From Deltaproteobacteria bacterium CG_4_9_14_3_um_filter_63_12 (lineage in GTDB: Bacteria > Myxococcota_A > Bradymonadia > UBA4248 > UM-FILTER-63-12), in contig PFUG01000420.1 in NCBI GenBank assembly GCA_002789955.1, positions 11,569-75,568 of the forward strand: 64,000 bases of DNA, given 5' to 3'. Under the pieces are notes generated by a model. That model had not been told where the DNA came from. It did no database searches and was given only the letters and a program-made list of their open reading frames with translations. The position numbers and the translations under genes are program-made. Positions within the stretch are counted from its first letter, which is position 1. The number at the start of each line of letters is the position of its first letter. Positions 7,859 to 63,639 of this stretch are shown in pieces.

Positions 7859-7928
7859 GGCGGTTGAGCCCGACGATGGGGTGTGCTATCGCTTCTGCCC
7901 CAGCAGGGACCTGCGCTCGCGTTTCATC

Positions 7929-7998
7929 GATCGGATTTCGCGCGCGACTCGGCACCGCAGCGGTCTCGAAGCGAGCCAGCTGCGGACCTACGCGCGAT
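7929..7998 (+). repeat. Copy B of the palindromic intergenic repeat family
   Basis: gatcggatttcgcgcgcgactcggcaccgcagcggtctcgaagcgagccagctgcggacctacgcgcgattgg. It lies between the region-4 protein gene and the mtnP-like gene. Confidence 0.75.
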
Positions 7999-26144: not shown

Positions 26145-27851
26145 TTGAAGAACAAGGCGGTTATGGCTGGGATGGTGAGCCTGACCCTTCGACAACGAAC
26201 CTGGTTCTACCTGTTCTTGCTCCTTGGGCTCGTCGGTCTGCTCTACGGACCGATTGTTGGTCACCCATTCTCCCAGGCCGACGATCCGGCATACATCCTG
26301 CTCAATCCCGAGATCACGAACCCTGGTGCGGCCTCAGGCGCTGACCTCTTTTTTCAACCCCATATCGGCTACATCGTTCCCATCACCGGCCTCTTCGATG
26401 CAGCGCTGTACGCCGTGGGAGATGGGGAACCTTGGGTCTTTCATCTCGCATCTCTCGTGTTTTTTGGGCTGCTGGTGACGGCTCTGTTTAGTCTACTCCT
26501 CGAGTGGAGTGGGGAGCGGCCTGGGTTCGCGCTGTGCGCGGCCGCCTTGTTTGCTGCTCATCCCCTGGTGGTCGAGCCCATCGCTTGGGCCACGGGCCTC
26601 AAGGACCTCTTGATGGGTGGCTTCGTGTTGTGGGGCACCCTCGCCTTCGTCTTGGGGCTGAAACGTGGCTCGAAGCGATTGTTATGGGTGAGCGCAGCGT
26701 TGGGGGTCTGCGCTCTCTTGAGCAAACCCACTGGTGCGTTCATAGGGCTGGTCTGGGCCCTCTACGCGCTCTACAACGACCGTTCGAAGGCGCCACTCAA
26801 AAGCGCTTTGTGGGCGAGCGCGGTCCCTCTTTTGCTCGCCCTTCCGCTGATGGCGATGAGCTGGATGATCAATACCGAGGTTCTTCCGGGCGATCCGCAG
26901 TCCCTCGAGGGGACCTGGCAAGTCCCGCTGACGCTTGGGTACCAACTCGAACACTTCTTTTGGCCCGCTGAGCTCTTTCCGCGCTACCCAATCATCCGAG
27001 AGGCTGGGTTCGAGGATTTCCACACCTGGCTGGGCTGCTTGGCAATCGGGATCTTCTTCGGAGCTTTGTTTCGCCTCCGAAAACGGCCGAAGGTCGCGCT
27101 CGGTCTGGGGCTCGCGTTCTGCGTCTATCTTCCCGTGAGCGGCGTACTACCCTTTCCGAGGATGGTGGGGGACTCTTACCTCCTCGTTCCTTTGGCTGGA
27201 CTCTCAATGGCGCTGACTGCAGGGGTGACGAGTGCGTTAGAGGCCCCCCGTCGTGCGGCGTGGACGAAACGGCTATTGGCCGTCTGTCTAGTACTCGTCG
27301 CTGTCTTGTCCGTGCGTGCGGTTGACCAACGTGAGCGCTGGCGGTCGGCGGCGACCCTTTGGTATCCGGCGACGCAAGAATATGACAATTGGCCCTTGGC
27401 CTGGATGAGCCTTGCCGAGGGTTTGCGTTTTGAGGGAGAGGTGGATCGCGCGGTCGGAGCGTACGAGCAGCTCTTTGCGTACCGCTATGAACCATCGCTG
27501 CTCCATATGCTCGCCATCATGTTGGTTCGTGCTGGAGACTTAAGTGAAGCCGAATGCGTCTTTGCCGAGGACATCTTCTACGGCTCGGATCAGGCCCGAG
27601 CTCTCAGCAACCATGCGGCGCTCTTGATTTCCAACGAAGAGCACCTCATCGAGCATCTCGATGTCGCCAAGATGTCCCTCGACTGGTCTTTGCTGCAGGT
27701 CCAAAAGGGAATCGTCAAATGGCCGCCCGAGCGTGTCGAAGCGCTGATGCGGCGTCTTGCCACGGTCGGCCCGCCCAGCCAGGACTTGCCGGAGTGGCCG
27801 AAGCGAAACTGTCCGTCGCTGCAGGTCTCGCCAACCGACGCCTGCCCCTGA
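26145..27851 (+). CDS. TMTC-like (DUF1736-type) GT-C membrane glycosyltransferase with C-terminal TPR region
   Basis: Ten or more hydrophobic helices. A conserved first-loop DD motif (FSQADDPAYIL) and the DUF1736/TMTC signature AHPLVVEPIAWATGLKDLL. C-terminal soluble TPR-like helices (AEGLRFEGEVDRAVGAYEQLF...). Confidence 0.55.
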   Translation: MKNKAVMAGMVSLTLRQRTWFYLFLLLGLVGLLYGPIVGHPFSQADDPAYILLNPEITNPGAASGADLFFQPHIGYIVPITGLFDAALYAVGDGEPWVFHLASLVFFGLLVTALFSLLLEWSGERPGFALCAAALFAAHPLVVEPIAWATGLKDLLMGGFVLWGTLAFVLGLKRGSKRLLWVSAALGVCALLSKPTGAFIGLVWALYALYNDRSKAPLKSALWASAVPLLLALPLMAMSWMINTEVLPGDPQSLEGTWQVPLTLGYQLEHFFWPAELFPRYPIIREAGFEDFHTWLGCLAIGIFFGALFRLRKRPKVALGLGLAFCVYLPVSGVLPFPRMVGDSYLLVPLAGLSMALTAGVTSALEAPRRAAWTKRLLAVCLVLVAVLSVRAVDQRERWRSAATLWYPATQEYDNWPLAWMSLAEGLRFEGEVDRAVGAYEQLFAYRYEPSLLHMLAIMLVRAGDLSEAECVFAEDIFYGSDQARALSNHAALLISNEEHLIEHLDVAKMSLDWSLLQVQKGIVKWPPERVEALMRRLATVGPPSQDLPEWPKRNCPSLQVSPTDACP

Positions 27852-27926
27852 GAGAGGTCAGCGAGACAGATGAGCTGAAGAGCTGCGTCCCCCCCTCCCG
27901 GTCACGCCTCAACTGGGCTCGTTGCC

Positions 27927-28379
27927 TTGGACTTCGACCGGACACTGCTCGGCTCCGACCACGAGGTCTCCGAGCGCGACCGCAGGGCGCTCGAATTCCT
28001 ACGTGCAAAGGCCGTCCTCGTCGTCGTCGCCACTGGCCGATCGTTGTCCTCCTTTCGGCGCTCCGTCGTGCAGGAATTGCCGATAGATTGGCCGGTCTTT
28101 TCCTCTGGAGCGGGCATCGCCCAGTGGCCTGCGTGTGAGGTTGTGCACGCCGTCCACCTCCCGTGTGGCGAGACCGCGTCGATCGGCGCGCATCTCGAGC
28201 ATCTCAATGCGCCGTATTGTGTCCATGACAAGATCCCGAACAACCATAGGTTCAGTCATCAGCTTGGCCGCGACAGCGCAGAGCGTACGAAGACCCCAAG
28301 GGCTCGCCCCTCCAATCCACGAACCGACCTCATGGACGTGCGTCGGACTTGGTCACATGTAGGCTCGCACAAGACCTGA
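27927..28379 (+). pseudogene. Truncated duplicate of the HAD/Cof-type phosphatase gene (5' fragment)
   Basis: Nucleotides 27932-28300 are about 93% identical to 30474-30842. The translation MDFDRTLLGSDHEVSERDRRALEFLRAKAVLVVVATGRS... matches the 30428 protein but has DFDRT instead of the catalytic DFDGT and lacks the C-terminal half (no GNDYNDLDML motif). Confidence 0.55.
27932..28300 (+). repeat. Segmental duplication, copy 1 (HAD phosphatase 5' region)
   Basis: Direct repeat of 30474-30842, aligned by eye at about 90-93% identity over roughly 370 bp. It is also visible as paralogous ORF-track peptides (27927 vs 30236, and 27554 vs 30067). Confidence 0.8.
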
Positions 28380-30048
28380 ACTCCCACGGTGGTGGCGGCT
28401 CGTGTTTTCCCCAGGCCGCAACCAGTTGGTCGAGCCGGGGTCCTAGGCGCGACGCCAAGAGGGGCTCGAGTTTCAGACGACGGGCCTCGACTTCGCTTCC
28501 CACCCACCACAGAGGCTCGATGCCATAGCCAGGATAGCGAGGCGCGCGGTCGATCTTCATGAGGTACAACACTCCTAGGTTGTACTTCGACACCGGAGGA
28601 TGCCCGCCGAAGTGGACGTCTTCGATCATGAGGCATTCGGCCTCGTCGAAATTGCCAGCCGACACCTGTGCGAACGCGAAGCTGTCGAGATAGGAGGGGA
28701 CGTAAGCCCGCGTAAATGTTTGCTCCCAGGCGCTCACCGAGCGTTCGAACTCGCCCGCGAATTGCAGACCTTCCGCCATCATCATCCACGGGTAGTGTTG
28801 CCACTGGGGGTCGTCGGAGGCGTCGATGGCTGGGTACCAAAGCGCCACAGCGGACGCCCAGCGCTGCGACTGATCGTGCCCGAGCCACCCCAGCACAGCC
28901 ACGAGGGCAAAGGCGACGAGGGCGAAGCCTTTTCTAAGTCGCGGCCAGGGGAGTTCCTTCAACCACACGGCAACCGCCACGAGAGATGTAGAGAGGGGCA
29001 AATAAAGGTAGCTGTCGGCGACCATCCGTGCGAAGGGCAGCAGATTGCTGACCGGCAGATAGCCGCAAACGGCGAGCGCAAGAGCGAACAAGACCTCGGC
29101 GCGCCTCCTAGCAAACCAAACCACGGCGACCACGAGAAGCAGTACACACATGCCGAAATATACGTGGGGGTCGGAGTAGCCGGCGAGTCGATTGACCGCG
29201 TAGCGTGGGAGGAGATCAAGTGGCCACAAGAGGTGCTGAGTCTGGTGGCCTAGAGCCATGAAGAAGTGCGCCCCTCCCGAACCAATCGCAGCGTCTGTGT
29301 CCAGCAACTCGCTGTGCATGTGGAAGCTGGCCGCGGTGATCACCAGGCTGACAAGTACCAAGAGCGTGATCGCCCGACAGAAGACTGGGGGAACGACTTC
29401 GCCGCGTCGGCGAACCTGCACCAAGTACCCGGCCCAGGCGAGGGGCACCAGAGCCCCCGTAGGCTTCGAGAGCACCGAGAGCAACGTGGCCGTCACCGCT
29501 AAAGTGAGCCAGACGCGAACGCTTTTCTCGTTGCTTTCCTGGCTGCAACGAAACGCCCTGAGGACCATGAGCGTGGCAGCCAACGCAAAGTTGGCCATCA
29601 GCAGGTCTTTCAGCCCTGTCGCCCACGCGAATGGCTCGACTGTAATGGGGTGAACGGCAAACAGGGACGCGGCGAGGAAGGCAGCGAGTGGCGAACAAGC
29701 AAGCCTGCGGGCCAAACTGTAGGTCAACGCTGCCATGAGCGCATGGAGCAACAAACCAACCAAGTGAAAGGGCCATGGCGCACCGCCGCCGAGCCAGAAG
29801 AGAGCCGCCTCGACGTTGCTGGTTACCGGAACGATGTAACCTATTCCGGGGGTCATGATGAGGTCCATGAGCGGCTGGCTCGTGGGCTTTGTGATCTGGG
29901 GGTTCTCGAGGATGAATCGTACGTCGTCCATTTTCGTGAACGGCTGGCTGATGACGTGTGTATGGAGGCCCATCACGAGGACGAACAGCGCGCTCCACGC
30001 TGCAAGATCGCGGCGTTTGTCGAGGTTGGGTGAGGAGGATGTCGGCAT
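28330..30048 (-). CDS. TMTC-like GT-C membrane glycosyltransferase with C-terminal TPR region (paralog of 26145-27851)
   Basis: Start at MPTSSSPNLDKRRD. FTKMDDVRFIL (DD loop), AVHPITVEPFAWATGLKDLLM (DUF1736 signature), multi-pass membrane topology and a C-terminal TPR-like domain. It is convergent with its paralog. Confidence 0.55.
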   Translation of the reverse strand: MPTSSSPNLDKRRDLAAWSALFVLVMGLHTHVISQPFTKMDDVRFILENPQITKPTSQPLMDLIMTPGIGYIVPVTSNVEAALFWLGGGAPWPFHLVGLLLHALMAALTYSLARRLACSPLAAFLAASLFAVHPITVEPFAWATGLKDLLMANFALAATLMVLRAFRCSQESNEKSVRVWLTLAVTATLLSVLSKPTGALVPLAWAGYLVQVRRRGEVVPPVFCRAITLLVLVSLVITAASFHMHSELLDTDAAIGSGGAHFFMALGHQTQHLLWPLDLLPRYAVNRLAGYSDPHVYFGMCVLLLVVAVVWFARRRAEVLFALALAVCGYLPVSNLLPFARMVADSYLYLPLSTSLVAVAVWLKELPWPRLRKGFALVAFALVAVLGWLGHDQSQRWASAVALWYPAIDASDDPQWQHYPWMMMAEGLQFAGEFERSVSAWEQTFTRAYVPSYLDSFAFAQVSAGNFDEAECLMIEDVHFGGHPPVSKYNLGVLYLMKIDRAPRYPGYGIEPLWWVGSEVEARRLKLEPLLASRLGPRLDQLVAAWGKHEPPPPWEFRSCASLHVTKSDARP

Positions 30049-30427
30049 GGAAGACTGACCCGTGCGATGTCTTGGGCGATGGTTCGCTTGAACACGAGCG
30101 CAGGCACCCAAACTCGCCTGAGTCGAGGTTGGTGCCAGGAGGCGAGCGAACCCCGACCGCGCGTCGGCAGCTGGCTCGATTGTGACAGCGTGGTGCCTCG
30201 TGCGAGGTCTGCTCGACGACTAGCGCGAATCGGCGTTGGTTGTCACGGTCACCCAGCAGTGGGGTGGCGCCCACGTCGAAGGGCTCTTAGAGTCGTGGCC
30301 AGTCGCTGCAACAGTTGCGGAGCGAGGGAGCCCGCTCAGCGACGAAAATCGCGGCTTGATTCGCCAGGCGATGCACAGGCTCACCGAACTTGCCGGGGAG
30401 GGTGCCCCACGGCCGGCAAGAAAAACA

Positions 30428-31276
30428 ATGCACAGCAAACGCCCAAACTCGCCCCCCTTCGGGCTCTTTGCCTGCGACTTCGACGGGACACTGCTCGGCT
30501 CCGACCACCAGGTCTCCGAGCGCGACCGCAGGGCGCTCGAGTGCCTACGCACAAAGGGCGTCCTCGTCGTCGTCGCCACTGGCCGATCGTTGTTCTCCTT
30601 TCGACGCGCGGTCGTGCAGGAATTGCCGGTAGATTGGCTAGTCTTTTCCTCGGGAGCGGGCATCGCCCAGTGGCCTGTGTGTGAGGTTGTGCACGCCGTC
30701 CACCTCACGTGTGAAGAGACCGCGTCGATCGGTGCGCACCTCGAGCTCCTCAATGCGCCATATTGCGTCCACGACACGATCCCGAACAACCATAGGTTCA
30801 GCTATCAGCTCGGTCGCGACAGTGCAGACTTGAGACGTCGGATCGAACTCTACGCGCCCTTCTCTAGACCCTTGAGCGCTGATCGACTCGAGAAAGAGGC
30901 CACCCAAGTCATCGTGCACCTCGAGGAGCACGAGGCCGAAGCGGGCTGTCTAGCGCTGCGGGAGCACTTCGAGGACCTGGGGGTAATCCGGACCACTTCG
31001 CCGTTGGACCACTGCTCGACTTGGGTCGAGATCTTCCCGCGTGGCGTCTCCAAGAGCAGCGGTCTGCGCTGGCTCTGTGAGCATCTCAATGTCGCGCCGG
31101 CGAGGACTGGGGCCGTCGGGAACGACTACAACGACCTCGATATGTTGGAGTGGGTGGCTCATCCGTTCGTGGTTTCCAATGCCGCAGCGCCCCTGAGAGC
31201 GCGCTTTCAGGTCGTACGGAGCCACGACAGTGGAGGGGTCGCCGAGGCGGTCGAACGGTGGCTGGAGTCCCTCTGA
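30428..31276 (+). CDS. HAD-superfamily hydrolase, Cof-like (subfamily IIB) phosphatase
   Basis: Motif I FACDFDGTLL, motif II VVVATGRS, motif IV GNDYNDLDML. The ORF track offers an upstream start at 30236, but the conserved N-terminus begins at the ATG at 30428. Confidence 0.7.
   Translation: MHSKRPNSPPFGLFACDFDGTLLGSDHQVSERDRRALECLRTKGVLVVVATGRSLFSFRRAVVQELPVDWLVFSSGAGIAQWPVCEVVHAVHLTCEETASIGAHLELLNAPYCVHDTIPNNHRFSYQLGRDSADLRRRIELYAPFSRPLSADRLEKEATQVIVHLEEHEAEAGCLALREHFEDLGVIRTTSPLDHCSTWVEIFPRGVSKSSGLRWLCEHLNVAPARTGAVGNDYNDLDMLEWVAHPFVVSNAAAPLRARFQVVRSHDSGGVAEAVERWLESL
30474..30842 (+). repeat. Segmental duplication, copy 2 (intact HAD phosphatase 5' region)
   Basis: See 27932-28300. Confidence 0.8.
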
Positions 31277-31378
31277 GGCGTAGGACGTACGCAACAATTC
31301 CGCTCGTCAGGAATCTCCACTGGCGCTCTGGACTTGACCCTCGACCGGTTCTTGTGGGACTTGTTCTGCGAGCCGCCC

Positions 31379-31450
31379 GATCGGATTTCGCGCGCTACTC
31401 GGAACAGAGGGGGCTCGAAGCGAGCCATCTCGCGTCCCTACCCGCGATCG
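31379..31450 (+). repeat. Copy C of the palindromic intergenic repeat family
   Basis: gatcggatttcgcgcgctactcggaacagagggggctcgaagcgagccatctcgcgtccctacccgcgatcg. Intergenic, between the HAD gene and the amidohydrolase gene. Confidence 0.75.
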
Positions 31451-52905: not shown

Positions 52906-52979
52906 ACCCAGAACGCGATCGCGCGTAGGCACGCTGCTGGCTCGCTTCGAGACCGCTCGGCGCCGAGTAGCGCGCGAAA
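52906..52979 (-). repeat. Copy D (inverted orientation) of the palindromic intergenic repeat family
   Basis: The plus strand reads gatcgcgcgtaggcacgctgctggctcgcttcgagaccgctcggcgccgagtagcgcgcgaaatccgattgg, the reverse complement of the copy A/B/C consensus. It lies between the lipoprotein start (52889) and the Nif3 stop (53056). Confidence 0.75.
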
Positions 52980-53055
52980 TCCGATTGGCGAAGTATAGAG
53001 CGCCCCTGCGAAGCGGGTCAATGGCGCTCCCAGCCCCATTCCTCGCGTGCAGGCC

Positions 53056-60936: not shown

Positions 60937-63639
60937 CTACTTCGCGGCGGCCAGGGCGGCGTCGATCTCGGCCTTGAAGGCCTCGAATGGCTGCGCACCA
61001 ACGAACTTCTTGCCGTTGATCAGGAAACTCGGAGTTCCAGAGATCCCAGCGCCTTTGGCCTGAGCGCCGTCGCTCTGGATCGTGGCTTTGAACTTTCCGC
61101 TGTCGAGAGCGGCGCGGAACTTGACCATATCGAGACCCAACTGCCCTGCGTAGGCCTCGAGATTCTCCCGCTTGATGGCTCTTTGGTTGGCGAAGAGGAT
61201 GTCGTGGTATTCCCAGAACTTGCCCTGCTCGTGCGCGGCGAGTGCGGCCTCTGCGGCCAAGGGGGCATCCTCGTGGAATTCAAGAGGCATCTGCTTGAAG
61301 ACGATCTTGACGTCGTTCGGGTAGGACTCGTGGATCTGTTTGAAGGTGGGAAGGACCTTTGAGCAGAAGGGGCATTGGAAGTCACTGAACTCGATGATCG
61401 TCACCTTGGCACTCGCTGGTCCCTTGATCGGCGAGCCTTTGATATCGACTTCGACGGGGGCCGGGGCTTGAGTCTTCTCGCTGGAGATGATCGTCTCGTA
61501 GAGCTTGTCCTTGGCGACGCCCTTCGCGAGGTAGTCTTGGGCAGTCTTGTACTCGCGGTCCAGAGCCGCCTGGAAAGACGCCAGCGGCTGTGCTCCCGAG
61601 AAGCGAGTCCCATTGATGAAGAAGTGAGGGGTTCCCCGAACGCCAACCTTGCCAGCGGCGGCCTTGTCGGCCTCGATCACCTTGTCCAGCTCTGCATTGT
61701 CGAGGTCTGCCTCGAACTTGGCCATGTTGAGCTGCAGTTGCTGCGCATAGGAGACCAAGTTATCGCGTCCGAGCGCCTTCTGATTCTTGAACAACATGTC
61801 GTGGTACTCCCAGAACTTCCCTTGTTTGTTCGCCGCGACAGCTGCCCTCGCGGCCAGTGGGGCGCTCTTGTGGAACTCCAGCGGGAAATGCTTGAAGACG
61901 ATCTTGACCTTGCCAGGATTCTTCTCGAGGAGCTCCTTCAAAGTCTCCGCTCCACGGCTGCAGAAGGGACATTCGAAGTCACTGAACTCAACGATAGTGA
62001 CCGGAGCATTCTTGTCGCCAATGACTGGGCTGTCGCCCACGACCACCAAATGGCGACCATCGTCTTCGGGTGCCTCTGCGGCCTGTGGCGGTGCGGCTTC
62101 CTTCGGCGCGCTCAGGACCAACGCCTTGTAGAGATTTTCGCCAGTCAGGCCTTTGGCCTTCGACAGGGCATCGGCTCGCTTGATCTCCTCATCAATGATC
62201 TTCTTGAAGTTCTCGGTGGGCTGCGCCCCAACGAACTTGCGTCCGTTGATCAAGAAACTCGGCGTTCCGGTGATTCCGAACTTGCGACCATCGGCCAAAT
62301 GGGTCGCGATCGTGGTTTCGTACTTTTTGGAGTCCAAGGCCGCTCTGAACTTGGCCATGTTCAAGCCGAGCTGCTCTGCGTACTTCTCCAAGTCCGCCCG
62401 TTGGATGGCCTTCTGGTTGGCGAAGAGCAGGTCGTGGTACTGCCAGAACTTGCCCTGCTCGTGGGCGGCCAGCGCGGCTTGTGCGGCGAGCGGCGCGTCC
62501 TTGTGGAAGTCTAGGGGGAACATCGCGAAGGCGACGCGGACGTCGTTCGGATAGGCCTTGAGGAGCTCCTCGACGGTCGGATTGACCTTGCCGCAGAAGG
62601 GGCATTGGAAATCACTGAATGCGAGGATCGTAACCTTGCCATTTGGCGCGCCTTTCACGGGCAGCGTCGAGATGTCGGGACCCACTCCACCTGCAGTCTC
62701 CTGCCCTGTGGGCAGCGCTGCGGACGGCTGGGGCTGTTCGTTTCCGCCACCGGCCTCCACAACCTCAGGACGTCCACCGCGATCGGCGGCGACTGCATCT
62801 TCAGCAAGGGACGGCCCCGTCTTGATCCCATCGGCGAGGCTGCGGTTGGCCCACACGGCGTAGCTGTAATAGCCATTGGCGCTCTCGAGGAGGTCGTTGG
62901 ACTTGGAGAGTTCCTCGTCGATGATCTGCTTCACCGAGGGGTAGGAGACGCCCTGCTTGAAGGAAACCTTGCGGCCGTTGACGAAGATCGATGGCGTCGA
63001 ACGCAGACCCAATCCCTCGGCGAGTTGCGTATCGCGCTCGAGCGCGGCCTCGGCTTCCTTGGAGTTCATGTCGGCGAGGAACTTCTTGTCGTCGAGGTTG
63101 AGGTCTTTGGCGTAGCCGACCAACTTGTCACTCTTCAAGAAACTGTTGAAATCGGCCTCGAACCCCTTCGCGTCCTTGCGGTCGGTGGGGAAGGCATCGA
63201 AGACCTTGTCGTGGAATTCCCAAAACTTCCCTTGCTGACCAGCGGCCCAAGCGGCCTGCGCAGCGAGGCGAGCATCCGGATGCGTCGAGAGCGGGAGGTT
63301 CTTCCAGATGATGCGGACGTTGTCCTCACCATATTCACGCATGGCGCTGTTGATGAGCGCATCAGAGGCGGCGCGACAGGCTGTGCACTGGAAATCGCCG
63401 AACTCGACAATTGTGACGGGGGCCTTGTGTGAGCCCTTGGCGGGAGAGCCCTTCACTGGAAGGAGCTCGGAATCCACCGTCACCTTTGCCAACTCGGCGC
63501 TCGAGTCGGGGACGCTCGTGATACTGGGCGGGGAGGCTATGAAGTAGCCGATGAGAAAGGCAACCACGGCGGTCACGACGAAGCCAACTACGGCGACGAT
63601 TGGACTTAACCGTTTCTCCTCTGGACCCTGATGTGCCAT
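60937..63639 (-). CDS. Membrane-anchored protein with four tandem DsbA-like thioredoxin-fold domains
   Basis: N-terminal TM anchor (IVAVVGFVVTAVVAFLIGYFI). Four about 200-aa repeats each contain a CxxC thioredoxin active site in the same context (VEFGDFQCTAC; LAFSDFQCPFC; VEFSDFECPFC; IEFSDFQCPFC). Each is followed by ...HKDAPLAA.AALAA..QGKFWEYHD..F and ...GTPSFLINGKKFVGAQP. Confidence 0.65.
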   Translation of the reverse strand: MAHQGPEEKRLSPIVAVVGFVVTAVVAFLIGYFIASPPSITSVPDSSAELAKVTVDSELLPVKGSPAKGSHKAPVTIVEFGDFQCTACRAASDALINSAMREYGEDNVRIIWKNLPLSTHPDARLAAQAAWAAGQQGKFWEFHDKVFDAFPTDRKDAKGFEADFNSFLKSDKLVGYAKDLNLDDKKFLADMNSKEAEAALERDTQLAEGLGLRSTPSIFVNGRKVSFKQGVSYPSVKQIIDEELSKSNDLLESANGYYSYAVWANRSLADGIKTGPSLAEDAVAADRGGRPEVVEAGGGNEQPQPSAALPTGQETAGGVGPDISTLPVKGAPNGKVTILAFSDFQCPFCGKVNPTVEELLKAYPNDVRVAFAMFPLDFHKDAPLAAQAALAAHEQGKFWQYHDLLFANQKAIQRADLEKYAEQLGLNMAKFRAALDSKKYETTIATHLADGRKFGITGTPSFLINGRKFVGAQPTENFKKIIDEEIKRADALSKAKGLTGENLYKALVLSAPKEAAPPQAAEAPEDDGRHLVVVGDSPVIGDKNAPVTIVEFSDFECPFCSRGAETLKELLEKNPGKVKIVFKHFPLEFHKSAPLAARAAVAANKQGKFWEYHDMLFKNQKALGRDNLVSYAQQLQLNMAKFEADLDNAELDKVIEADKAAAGKVGVRGTPHFFINGTRFSGAQPLASFQAALDREYKTAQDYLAKGVAKDKLYETIISSEKTQAPAPVEVDIKGSPIKGPASAKVTIIEFSDFQCPFCSKVLPTFKQIHESYPNDVKIVFKQMPLEFHEDAPLAAEAALAAHEQGKFWEYHDILFANQRAIKRENLEAYAGQLGLDMVKFRAALDSGKFKATIQSDGAQAKGAGISGTPSFLINGKKFVGAQPFEAFKAEIDAALAAAK

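Follow-up and report, generated by a model that had tools for sequence, protein, structure and literature searches.

What is a second, near-identical copy of the first half of a phosphatase gene doing between the stop codons of two convergent genes for paralogous membrane proteins, and how did it come to lie there, a whole gene away from its parent? An earlier note, made from the sequence alone, had read the upstream copy as a pseudogene left behind when an entire glycosyltransferase-phosphatase module was duplicated. The analysis described here supports the former part of that reading and speaks against the latter: the upstream copy is very probably a non-functional pseudogene fragment that arose by partial duplication, within the locus, of a HAD-IIB gene.

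Extent and boundaries of the repeat

Local alignment and a repeat search placed the two copies at 27915-28282 and 30461-30828, both on the plus strand, forming a direct repeat of 368 nt that aligned without gaps and was identical at 333 of 368 positions (90.5%); the starts of the two copies are 2546 nt apart. The fragment thereby lies 2.5 kb upstream of the intact HAD gene. In a self-BLAST of the 64-kb stretch of DNA that was analysed (the window) this pair was the top repeat (E = 2e-143), and self-BLAST and tblastn found only one extra copy within the window. The repeat described in the earlier note is thus real, and the length and identity given there (~90-93%) were essentially right, whereas its coordinates (27932-28300 and 30474-30842) were shifted some 15 nt to the right at either end. 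The 35 mismatches, comprising 21 transitions and 14 transversions, were distributed evenly along the 368 nt, such that no recent conversion tract is visible.

The edges of the repeat were sharp. The unique left flank (27852-27914, 63 nt, from the stop of the first membrane protein gene to the fragment) and the unique right flank (28283-28329, 47 nt, from the fragment to the stop of the second) shared with the HAD locus only chance 7-9-mers, and residual homology to the 3′ half of the HAD gene was found in neither. When the sequences upstream of both copies were compared by permissive local alignment, the score fell within the chance distribution obtained with shuffled and random window controls (P ~0.2). 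An apparent continuation of the homology up to the start codon, based on tblastn similarity from HAD residue 5 and on an 'ATG AGC TGA' at 27870-27878, was discarded as a C-rich low-complexity coincidence, since the nucleotide alignment was no better than that of control sequence. An in-frame TGA within the left flank (27876-27878) blocks read-through from the upstream membrane protein gene, and inspection of the junctions by eye revealed no convincing microhomology.

The parental gene encodes a HAD-IIB phosphatase

The downstream copy lies within an intact gene on the plus strand (30428-31276), encoding 282 aa from the ATG at 30428; other records use upstream starts that yield 301 or 346 aa. 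The protein matched the full length of the Pfam Hydrolase_3 profile (PF08282, E = 4.7e-33, 115 bits against a cutoff of 20.9) and also TIGR01484 (HAD-SF-IIB, 64 bits against a cutoff of 41.8), while its match to TIGR00099 (Cof-subfamily, 105 bits) was below the curated cutoff of 137. Membership of HAD-IIB thus holds, and the label 'Cof-type' reflects the best match only. Motif I reads D17-F-D19-G-T21, with D, D and T invariant in 119 homologues, and T51 (motif II), K209 (motif III) and G231-N-D-Y-N-D236 (motif IV) coincide with further invariant residues of the same homologues. The earlier proposal that the downstream copy forms the 5′ portion of an intact HAD phosphatase gene is borne out by these profile matches and motifs.

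The protein shares with HAD-IIB/Cof-type phosphatases the full Hydrolase_3 domain, the DFDGT motif, T51, K209 and the acidic cluster of motif IV, and its PDB relatives are the Cof-type phosphatases 1nrw, YidA (1rkq) and PfHAD1. It is set apart by its sub-clade, in which motif IV is an invariant GNDYNDLD. The nearest homologue outside this population is only ~50% identical, and its gene is neighboured by PhoU/PHO4 and an aldolase, with no glycosyltransferase gene nearby.

The upstream copy is truncated at both ends

The upstream copy corresponds to codons 12-134 of the parental gene. Its Hydrolase_3 match was restricted to profile positions 4-102 of 255 and its match to the Cof profile to the first ~100 of 256 positions. 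Ending at codon 134, it contains motifs I and II and is missing both the motif III Lys209 and the motif IV GNDYND; in contrast to HAD-IIB/Cof-type phosphatases, it therefore does not encode a complete catalytic core (motifs I-IV). At the other end, the repeat begins 33 nt inside the parental ORF, such that the native start codon is absent. The sequence upstream of the fragment is not homologous to the parental upstream region, no promoter region of the parental gene is carried along, and the sole in-frame option for initiation is a fortuitous TTG at 27927. Having no promoter, no native start and no C-terminal half (with its motif III Lys and Mg-binding motif IV), the fragment cannot make a phosphatase, and we infer that it is not expressed.

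A 150-codon ORF on the plus strand (27927-28379) starts at this TTG, runs through the fragment and continues for 97 nt past its end, so that 50 nt are shared with the 3′ end of the membrane protein gene on the opposite strand. It is annotated as a 'hypothetical protein' in two NCBI MAG records. No Shine-Dalgarno-like sequence was found ahead of the TTG, and the protein cluster of this ORF has one member, itself. Most likely it is not a real gene.

The upstream copy has diverged at conserved positions

At the protein level the two copies are 79% identical, with 18 amino-acid differences. At 13 of these the residue favoured by the 119 homologues is found in the intact gene, identifying it as the source, and at only 4 in the fragment. 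Derived changes in the fragment include G20R (Gly in 118/119 homologues), G44A (Gly in 101/119), F56S, L71P and Y126H (Tyr in 100/119). The positions conserved across the family thus gave no sign of purifying selection in the fragment (13 derived changes versus 4 in the intact gene), with the asymmetry being marginally significant by a binomial test (12:4 when the boundary codon is omitted, approximately P = 0.04, one-sided). Substitutions acquired by the fragment at residues that hardly vary among the homologues argue that it is a pseudogene.

This call had previously been based upon the mutation of motif I to DFDRT. The difference between DFDRT and DFDGT was confirmed in the sequence, but DFDRT still fits the HAD motif I consensus DxDx[T/V], with the two catalytic Asp residues and the Thr in place; the replaced Gly is nearly invariant yet non-catalytic. 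The decisive inactivating defect is instead the truncation after codon 134 together with loss of the native start. The call itself stands, on the strength of the truncation, the missing start and the derived changes.

For the repeat pair, dN was 0.074 and dS 0.207, giving a dN/dS of 0.36 summed over both lineages. That the overall ratio is 0.36, and not 1, counts against simple drift of the fragment. For the fragment lineage the ratio is ~0.5, a rough value derived from small counts and assuming that synonymous changes split equally between the lineages. Additionally, at 9.5% divergence there are zero indels over 368 bp and the reading frame is still open, observations that might weigh against a long-dead sequence; however, only a few indel events would be expected, and an open frame has a ~51% chance of surviving 22 random substitutions.

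The fragment is fixed in the sampled population

Contigs were identified by exact protein look-up and all represented the same population (≥99.9% identity), so that no unduplicated ancestral arrangement was seen among them. The fragment was present in 8/8 independent assemblies that span the site, at ≥99.9% identity (L001, L002, L003, L015, L016, L018, L022 and L023), and is thus fixed in the sampled population. Two SNPs segregate within it, 28083 A/G (where G is the base of the intact copy) and 27972 G/A. A search of the metagenome_contigs collection with a 24-mer representing the empty site (27903-27914 joined to 28283-28294) returned no match; as a control 27-mer of both copies was also absent, the collection is without this population and the search was uninformative.

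Its occurrence in all eight spanning assemblies shows that the fragment was not produced by faulty assembly. An upstream copy could in principle have been created by a chimeric join or by the collapse of a repeat, as assemblers can be confused by repeats and one contig (L003) begins at 27920, at the repeat edge. However, the eight assemblies derive from different samples, follow different contig-name styles and have an identical structure across the site, and the 35 positions that differ between the copies allow reads to be placed unambiguously, leaving this explanation with a negligible probability.

The flanking genes encode putative membrane glycosyltransferases

As the earlier note had described, the fragment is flanked by the stops of two paralogous membrane protein genes that converge on it: GT1 (26145-27851, plus strand; annotated from 26163 in other assemblies, giving 562 aa) and GT2 (28330-30048, minus strand), the latter in divergent orientation to the intact phosphatase gene. 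Excluding the fragment, the spacer between their stops is 110 bp. The coordinates previously given for these two genes and for the phosphatase gene were correct to within the choice of start codon.

GT1 and GT2 are 37% identical over 564 aa, and neither had a Pfam or NCBIfam match at curated thresholds. GT1 matched PMT_2 (PF13231) weakly, below threshold (E = 5.7e-4; 20.6 bits, where the cutoff is 26.1), GT2 gave no hit, and the DUF1736 domain (PF08409) of TMTC proteins was recorded in remote homologues only. An AlphaFold model of GT2 (pLDDT 88, pTM 0.88) was compared with the PDB using Foldseek, and the top 18 matches were all GT-C enzymes (Pmt4, ArnT, STT3/AglB, DPY19 and Pmt1/2; probability 1.0, TM-scores 0.31-0.43), the structural similarity being modest (TM-scores of 0.3-0.45). 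The model thus predicts a GT-C membrane fold for GT2. All 14 family members compared share two acidic residues, D41 and D42, which follow closely upon the first predicted helix and may have a catalytic role. The family profile matched TPR/PPR proteins and the TPR domain of OGT over profile positions ~410-500 (E down to 1e-13, for OGT), and TPR Pfam models matched up to 6 of the 14 members, with TPR_16 being the commonest, indicating C-terminal TPR repeats in both proteins. With 79 detectable relatives this is a small family, and the nearest relative outside this population is ~41-42% identical.

GT1 and GT2 resemble GT-C glycosyltransferases with TPR repeats (PMT_2/TMTC-like, ArnT-like) in having a multi-helix N-terminal membrane domain, an invariant DD that may lie in the first loop region and a C-terminal TPR region. 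They differ in that no curated model matches them, DUF1736 is confined to remote homologues and the structural similarity is modest; glycosyltransferase activity is a prediction. 'TMTC-like' was nonetheless a fair description of the architecture, a GT-C fold followed by a C-terminal TPR region.

Alternative explanations for the second copy

The layout had been interpreted as an ancestral glycosyltransferase-phosphatase module that was duplicated, after which the second phosphatase was cut back to its 5′ half; this half would then have to have been kept similar by gene conversion. HAD-derived sequence does adjoin each of the two paralogues, members of the GT1/GT2 family are found clustered in some other genomes (L039, L040, L041, L050 and L054), and the allele at 28083 that matches the intact copy could be read as gene conversion. 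However, GT1 and the fragment are co-directional (both plus) while GT2 (minus) and the HAD gene (plus) are divergent, so that the HAD copies are direct and the glycosyltransferase genes inverted. The ages also differ, with 37% protein identity between GT1 and GT2 reflecting an old split and 90.5% DNA identity between the HAD copies a young one. Moreover, GT1 and GT2 are each closer to the metagenome protein P0122 (42%) than to each other, indicating that their split predates this lineage. The flanks hold no trace of the HAD 3′ half, and the evenly spread mismatches oppose recent conversion. Finally, the adjacency was absent from all related loci examined: a HAD gene was found within 6 kb of GT homologues at 0/37 GTDB loci and beside them in 0/3 metagenome contexts. 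With orientation, relative age and conserved linkage all failing, the module-duplication model is largely refuted and we consider it highly improbable. By these comparisons, the HAD duplication was an event of its own that took place long after GT1 and GT2 had split.

There is a slim chance that the fragment has been retained for a function, either in antisense regulation or as a truncated HAD core peptide initiated at TTG 27927. The 150-codon frame is open and without indels, the copy is fixed, both Asp and the Thr of motif I are kept along with the Thr of motif II, and a weak consensus scan of the interval from the GT2 stop to the fragment detected no canonical intrinsic terminator. Against a function, the derived substitutions fall on the most conserved positions of the family, the native start is missing and the TTG is not preceded by a Shine-Dalgarno-like sequence, no homologous truncated protein was found elsewhere, Rfam gave no match over the fragment (nor over a nearby 75-nt repeat), chance alone would leave the frame open in about half of cases, and the terminator scan is itself a weak tool, canonical intrinsic terminators often being absent from high-GC organisms. 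The more specific proposal of a pseudogene-derived antisense RNA linking glycosyltransferase and phosphatase expression is less probable still; if true, minus-strand read-through from GT2 would generate an RNA with ~370 nt that are ~90% complementary to the 5′ coding region of the divergent HAD mRNA, within its first 400 nt. A programmed repeat, whether the template/variable pair of a diversity-generating retroelement or a silent cassette donating to an expressed gene, would likewise present as a near-identical direct repeat with one copy in a gene and the other non-coding. Here there is no adenine bias (A occurs at 4/35 mismatches in the fragment and at 7/35 in the gene), the repeat sits at the 5′ end of a gene for a cytoplasmic enzyme and not in a C-terminal ligand-binding domain, the window holds a single extra copy and the intact gene is invariant across assemblies. 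Both models were dropped, because the mismatches are not confined to template adenines and because of the copy number, and their probability is close to nil.

Proposed origin and significance

We propose that 368 bp of HAD 5′ coding region came into the 110-bp convergent spacer ~0.2 synonymous substitutions per site ago, and that the resulting pseudogene fragment has since been drifting under relaxed constraint. One route would be a 2,546-bp tandem duplication of 28283-30828, encompassing GT2, the divergent promoter region and the 5′ part of the HAD gene, with the redundant upstream copy of GT2 lost by deletion afterwards. Alternatively, a 368-bp copy may have been inserted ectopically in one step, through template switching or illegitimate recombination. 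The two routes appear to fit equally well. As for a terminator that the insertion might have disrupted, the joined flanks fold at -33 kcal/mol on one strand and -40 kcal/mol on the other (values without a shuffle control), and a weak consensus scan found no canonical terminator.

The fragment has the features of duplication-derived truncated pseudogenes of prokaryotes: it is a partial copy near its parent, has lost both the start and the 3′ half, drifts at conserved sites and has been over-annotated as a 'hypothetical protein'. Its one oddity is the location, between convergent genes and a whole gene from the parent, and not directly in tandem with it. Taken together, the data describe an ordinary dead gene remnant of a local duplication in an uncultured groundwater bacterium. 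It carries little biological weight, being one more such fragment in a bacterial genome. For annotation, the 'hypothetical protein' in the two public MAG records should be flagged as a pseudogene fragment. More generally, a duplicated module should not be read from the adjacency of a gene fragment to a pair of paralogues before orientation, relative age and the conservation of the linkage have each been checked.

A direct repeat rooted in a phosphatase gene

Repeat searching and Smith-Waterman alignment paired nucleotides 27915-28282 with 30461-30828 as a single, ungapped direct repeat of 368 nt (333/368 identical, 90.5%) with a spacing of 2546 nt, and self-BLAST ranked it as by far the strongest repeat of the entire window (E = 2e-143). 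Pairwise alignment therefore confirmed the near-identical direct repeat described in an earlier, sequence-only note, although both ends had been placed ~15 nt too far right. Both edges are sharp: the left flank (27852-27914, 63 nt) and the right flank (28283-28329, 47 nt) have nothing beyond chance 7-9-mers in common with the phosphatase locus. A tblastn hint that similarity might reach back to phosphatase residue 5 was rejected because a permissive alignment of the upstream flanks of both copies did not outscore controls of shuffled or random window sequence (P about 0.2).

The downstream copy corresponds to codons 12-134 of a 282-codon gene on the forward strand (30428-31276, ATG start). Pfam Hydrolase_3 covers this gene end to end (E = 4.7e-33) and it exceeds the cutoff of TIGR01484 (HAD-SF-IIB); its best match is the Cof subfamily model TIGR00099, yet at 105 bits against a curated cutoff of 137, and in the PDB it is related to Cof-type HAD phosphatases. 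In an alignment with 119 homologues every invariant catalytic residue was present (D17, D19, T21, T51, K209 and motif IV), so the gene is intact. Public records annotate three starts for it within 30236-30428, giving 346 aa (TTG 30236), 301 aa or 282 aa (ATG 30428), and the length of the homologues (277-325 aa) favours the shorter versions. Motif IV (residues 231-236, 31118-31135) reads GNDYNDLD in 119/119 homologues of the clade, whereas Cof-type proteins usually carry GDxxND, with the first acidic residue one position away from where it lies here. GNDYNDLD is a signature of the clade.

The upstream copy is a truncated pseudogene fragment

Of the profiles that detect the phosphatase, the upstream copy (27915-28282, +) matches no more than about the first 100 positions. 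It begins 33 nt within the parental open reading frame, and therefore lacks the native start codon and upstream region, and it stops at codon 134, and therefore lacks the motif III lysine and motif IV. It shares a frame with the preceding membrane protein gene, GT1, from which an in-frame TGA (27876-27878) separates it. A 150-codon open reading frame (27927-28379, +) with a fortuitous TTG start covers the fragment, continues 97 nt beyond the homology and runs 50 nt into the 3′ end of GT2, which is encoded on the opposite strand. Two NCBI MAG records (PIW02526.1, PJB38499.1) list it as a "hypothetical protein", and it is the sole member of its 90%-identity protein cluster; this annotation is likely an over-annotation. 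An open frame is no evidence of function here, since in such GC-rich sequence 122 codons remain stop-free 51% of the time after 22 random substitutions.

HAD motif I has the form DxDx[T/V] across the superfamily. The earlier note had called the fragment a pseudogene because its catalytic DxDGT motif reads DFDRT; the glycine-to-arginine change is real, but it falls on a nearly invariant, non-catalytic position and both aspartates and the threonine are kept, so this motif is not what disables the copy. The decisive defect is truncation.

The copies differ at 35 positions (8, 9 and 19 at codon positions 1, 2 and 3). The Ka/Ks check named in the earlier note gave dN = 0.074, dS = 0.207 and dN/dS = 0.36 for both lineages together (Nei-Gojobori). 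When the 18 amino-acid differences were polarised against the 119 homologues, 13 showed the family state in the intact gene and a derived state in the fragment, and only four the reverse. The derived changes of the fragment include the most conserved columns, namely G20R (Gly in 118/119), G44A (101/119), F56S, L71P and Y126H (Tyr in 100/119), while those of the intact gene fall in variable columns, a pattern that marks the fragment as under relaxed constraint. There are no indels between the copies, which is mildly unexpected for dead sequence, though few events are expected.

Exact-protein look-ups recovered 21 same-population contigs from many samples and several assemblies. The fragment was present in all eight contigs that span the spacer between GT1 and GT2 (L001, L002, L003, L015, L016, L018, L022, L023; each at least 99.9% identical to the window), so that an assembly artefact was rejected and the fragment is fixed in the sampled population. 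It contains two segregating SNPs: A/G at 28083, where G is the base of the intact copy (L003, L022, L023), and G/A at 27972 (L003). Within GT2, position 28883 is A in the window and C in almost every other same-population assembly, which points to a minority allele or else to an error in the consensus of the source contig. The repeat accounts for the start of L003 at 27920, the repeat edge. Two further independent contigs, L001 and L002, start at 26493 and 26496, within GT1; no repeat within the window accounts for this recurrent break at ~26495, which may come from a repeat elsewhere in the genome or from strain variation. Names of matching proteins assign the window to an uncultured "Deltaproteobacteria bacterium CG..." MAG; judging from this style of name, the source is presumably the Crystal Geyser aquifer study (PMC6792436).

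Origin of the fragment

The earlier note proposed that an ancestral glycosyltransferase-phosphatase module had been duplicated, with one phosphatase copy then decaying. This model fails three independent tests. In orientation, the phosphatase copies are direct and the GT genes inverted, the fragment being co-directional with GT1 while the intact gene diverges from GT2. In age, the GT pair retains 37% protein identity against a 9.5% DNA difference between the phosphatase copies; moreover, GT1 and GT2 are each closer to P0122, a protein of another metagenome (42%), than to each other, so their split predates the present lineage. In linkage, the closest phosphatase homologue has PhoU/PHO4 on one side, an aldolase on the other and no GT gene nearby, and tblastn detected no HAD gene within 6 kb of GT homologues in three metagenome contexts or 37 GTDB-representative loci. 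Several GT paralogues stand side by side at some of these 37 loci, indicating that GT clustering is a habit of the family that does not involve the phosphatase.

We infer that two routes to the fragment fit. If the 2,546-bp unit 28283-30828, which comprises GT2, the divergent promoter region and 401 nt from the start of the phosphatase gene, was duplicated in tandem, this would create the join 30828|28283 at the right edge of the fragment; the left edge, 27914|27915, would then date from a subsequent deletion that removed the upstream copy of GT2 as redundant. Alternatively, a 368-bp copy could have been inserted ectopically in one step, by template switching or illegitimate recombination. Neither junction shows convincing microhomology, and the spacer between the convergent stops without the 368 nt would be 110 nt. 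A search of metagenome contigs for the empty-site junction found no match but was uninformative, as the positive control was equally without match; the nearest relatives (about 50% identical for the phosphatase, about 42% for GT) offer no outgroup. The even spread of the mismatches (21 transitions, 14 transversions) and the lack of adenine bias argue against a recent conversion tract, and likewise against the template and variable repeats of a diversity-generating retroelement. Transcripts that run on from GT2 across the fragment could in principle act as antisense RNA to the phosphatase mRNA, but such a role is highly improbable. The upstream copy is a pseudogene fragment derived by duplication from a HAD-IIB phosphatase gene, an ordinary instance of a well-known kind.

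Other repeats in the window

A family of ~75-nt repeats has four copies in the 64 kb (630-711, +; 7928-7998, +; 31377-31450, +; 52910-52988, -; mean column identity 78%), the third lying between the phosphatase stop (31276) and an amidohydrolase start (31581). Its core is GATCGGATTTCGCGCGCTACTCGG...CTCGAAGCGAGCCAGC...CCTACGCGCGATCG; the ends are self-complementary (CGATCG...CGATCG), and the predicted fold is a branched hairpin. No match was found in Rfam; a REP/MITE-like element is one possible identity, a small RNA or terminator motif not yet described another. Self-BLAST also detected internal direct repeats at 60973-62641 (about 200-445 nt, 68-73% identity, about 600-1200 nt spacing), which look like repeated domains inside one long gene.

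The flanking membrane proteins

The convergent genes GT1 (26145-27851, +) and GT2 (28330-30048, -) encode proteins that share 37% identity over 564 residues. Neither reached a curated Pfam or NCBIfam threshold (PMT_2 on GT1, 20.6 bits where the cutoff is 26.1). When GT2 was modelled with AlphaFold (pLDDT 88), the 18 best PDB matches of the model were all GT-C enzymes (Pmt4, ArnT, STT3/AglB, DPY19, Pmt1/2), and the family profile matches TPR proteins at positions about 410-500. The label "TMTC-like" in the earlier note is therefore fair for architecture, a GT-C domain followed by TPR, but family membership does not hold at model thresholds. The Asp-Asp pair at positions 41-42 is invariant in a 14-member alignment, and the 32 invariant residues of the family include DD41-42, H133-P134, K147-D148 and D345-S-Y347. 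A search of 5.8 billion proteins detected 79 relatives, most of them in Myxococcota-like MAGs, so this family (GT1, GT2; loci L029-L065) is a small one, for which no Pfam or NCBIfam model reaches threshold. The GT1/GT2 family is a candidate for a new GT-C subfamily model.
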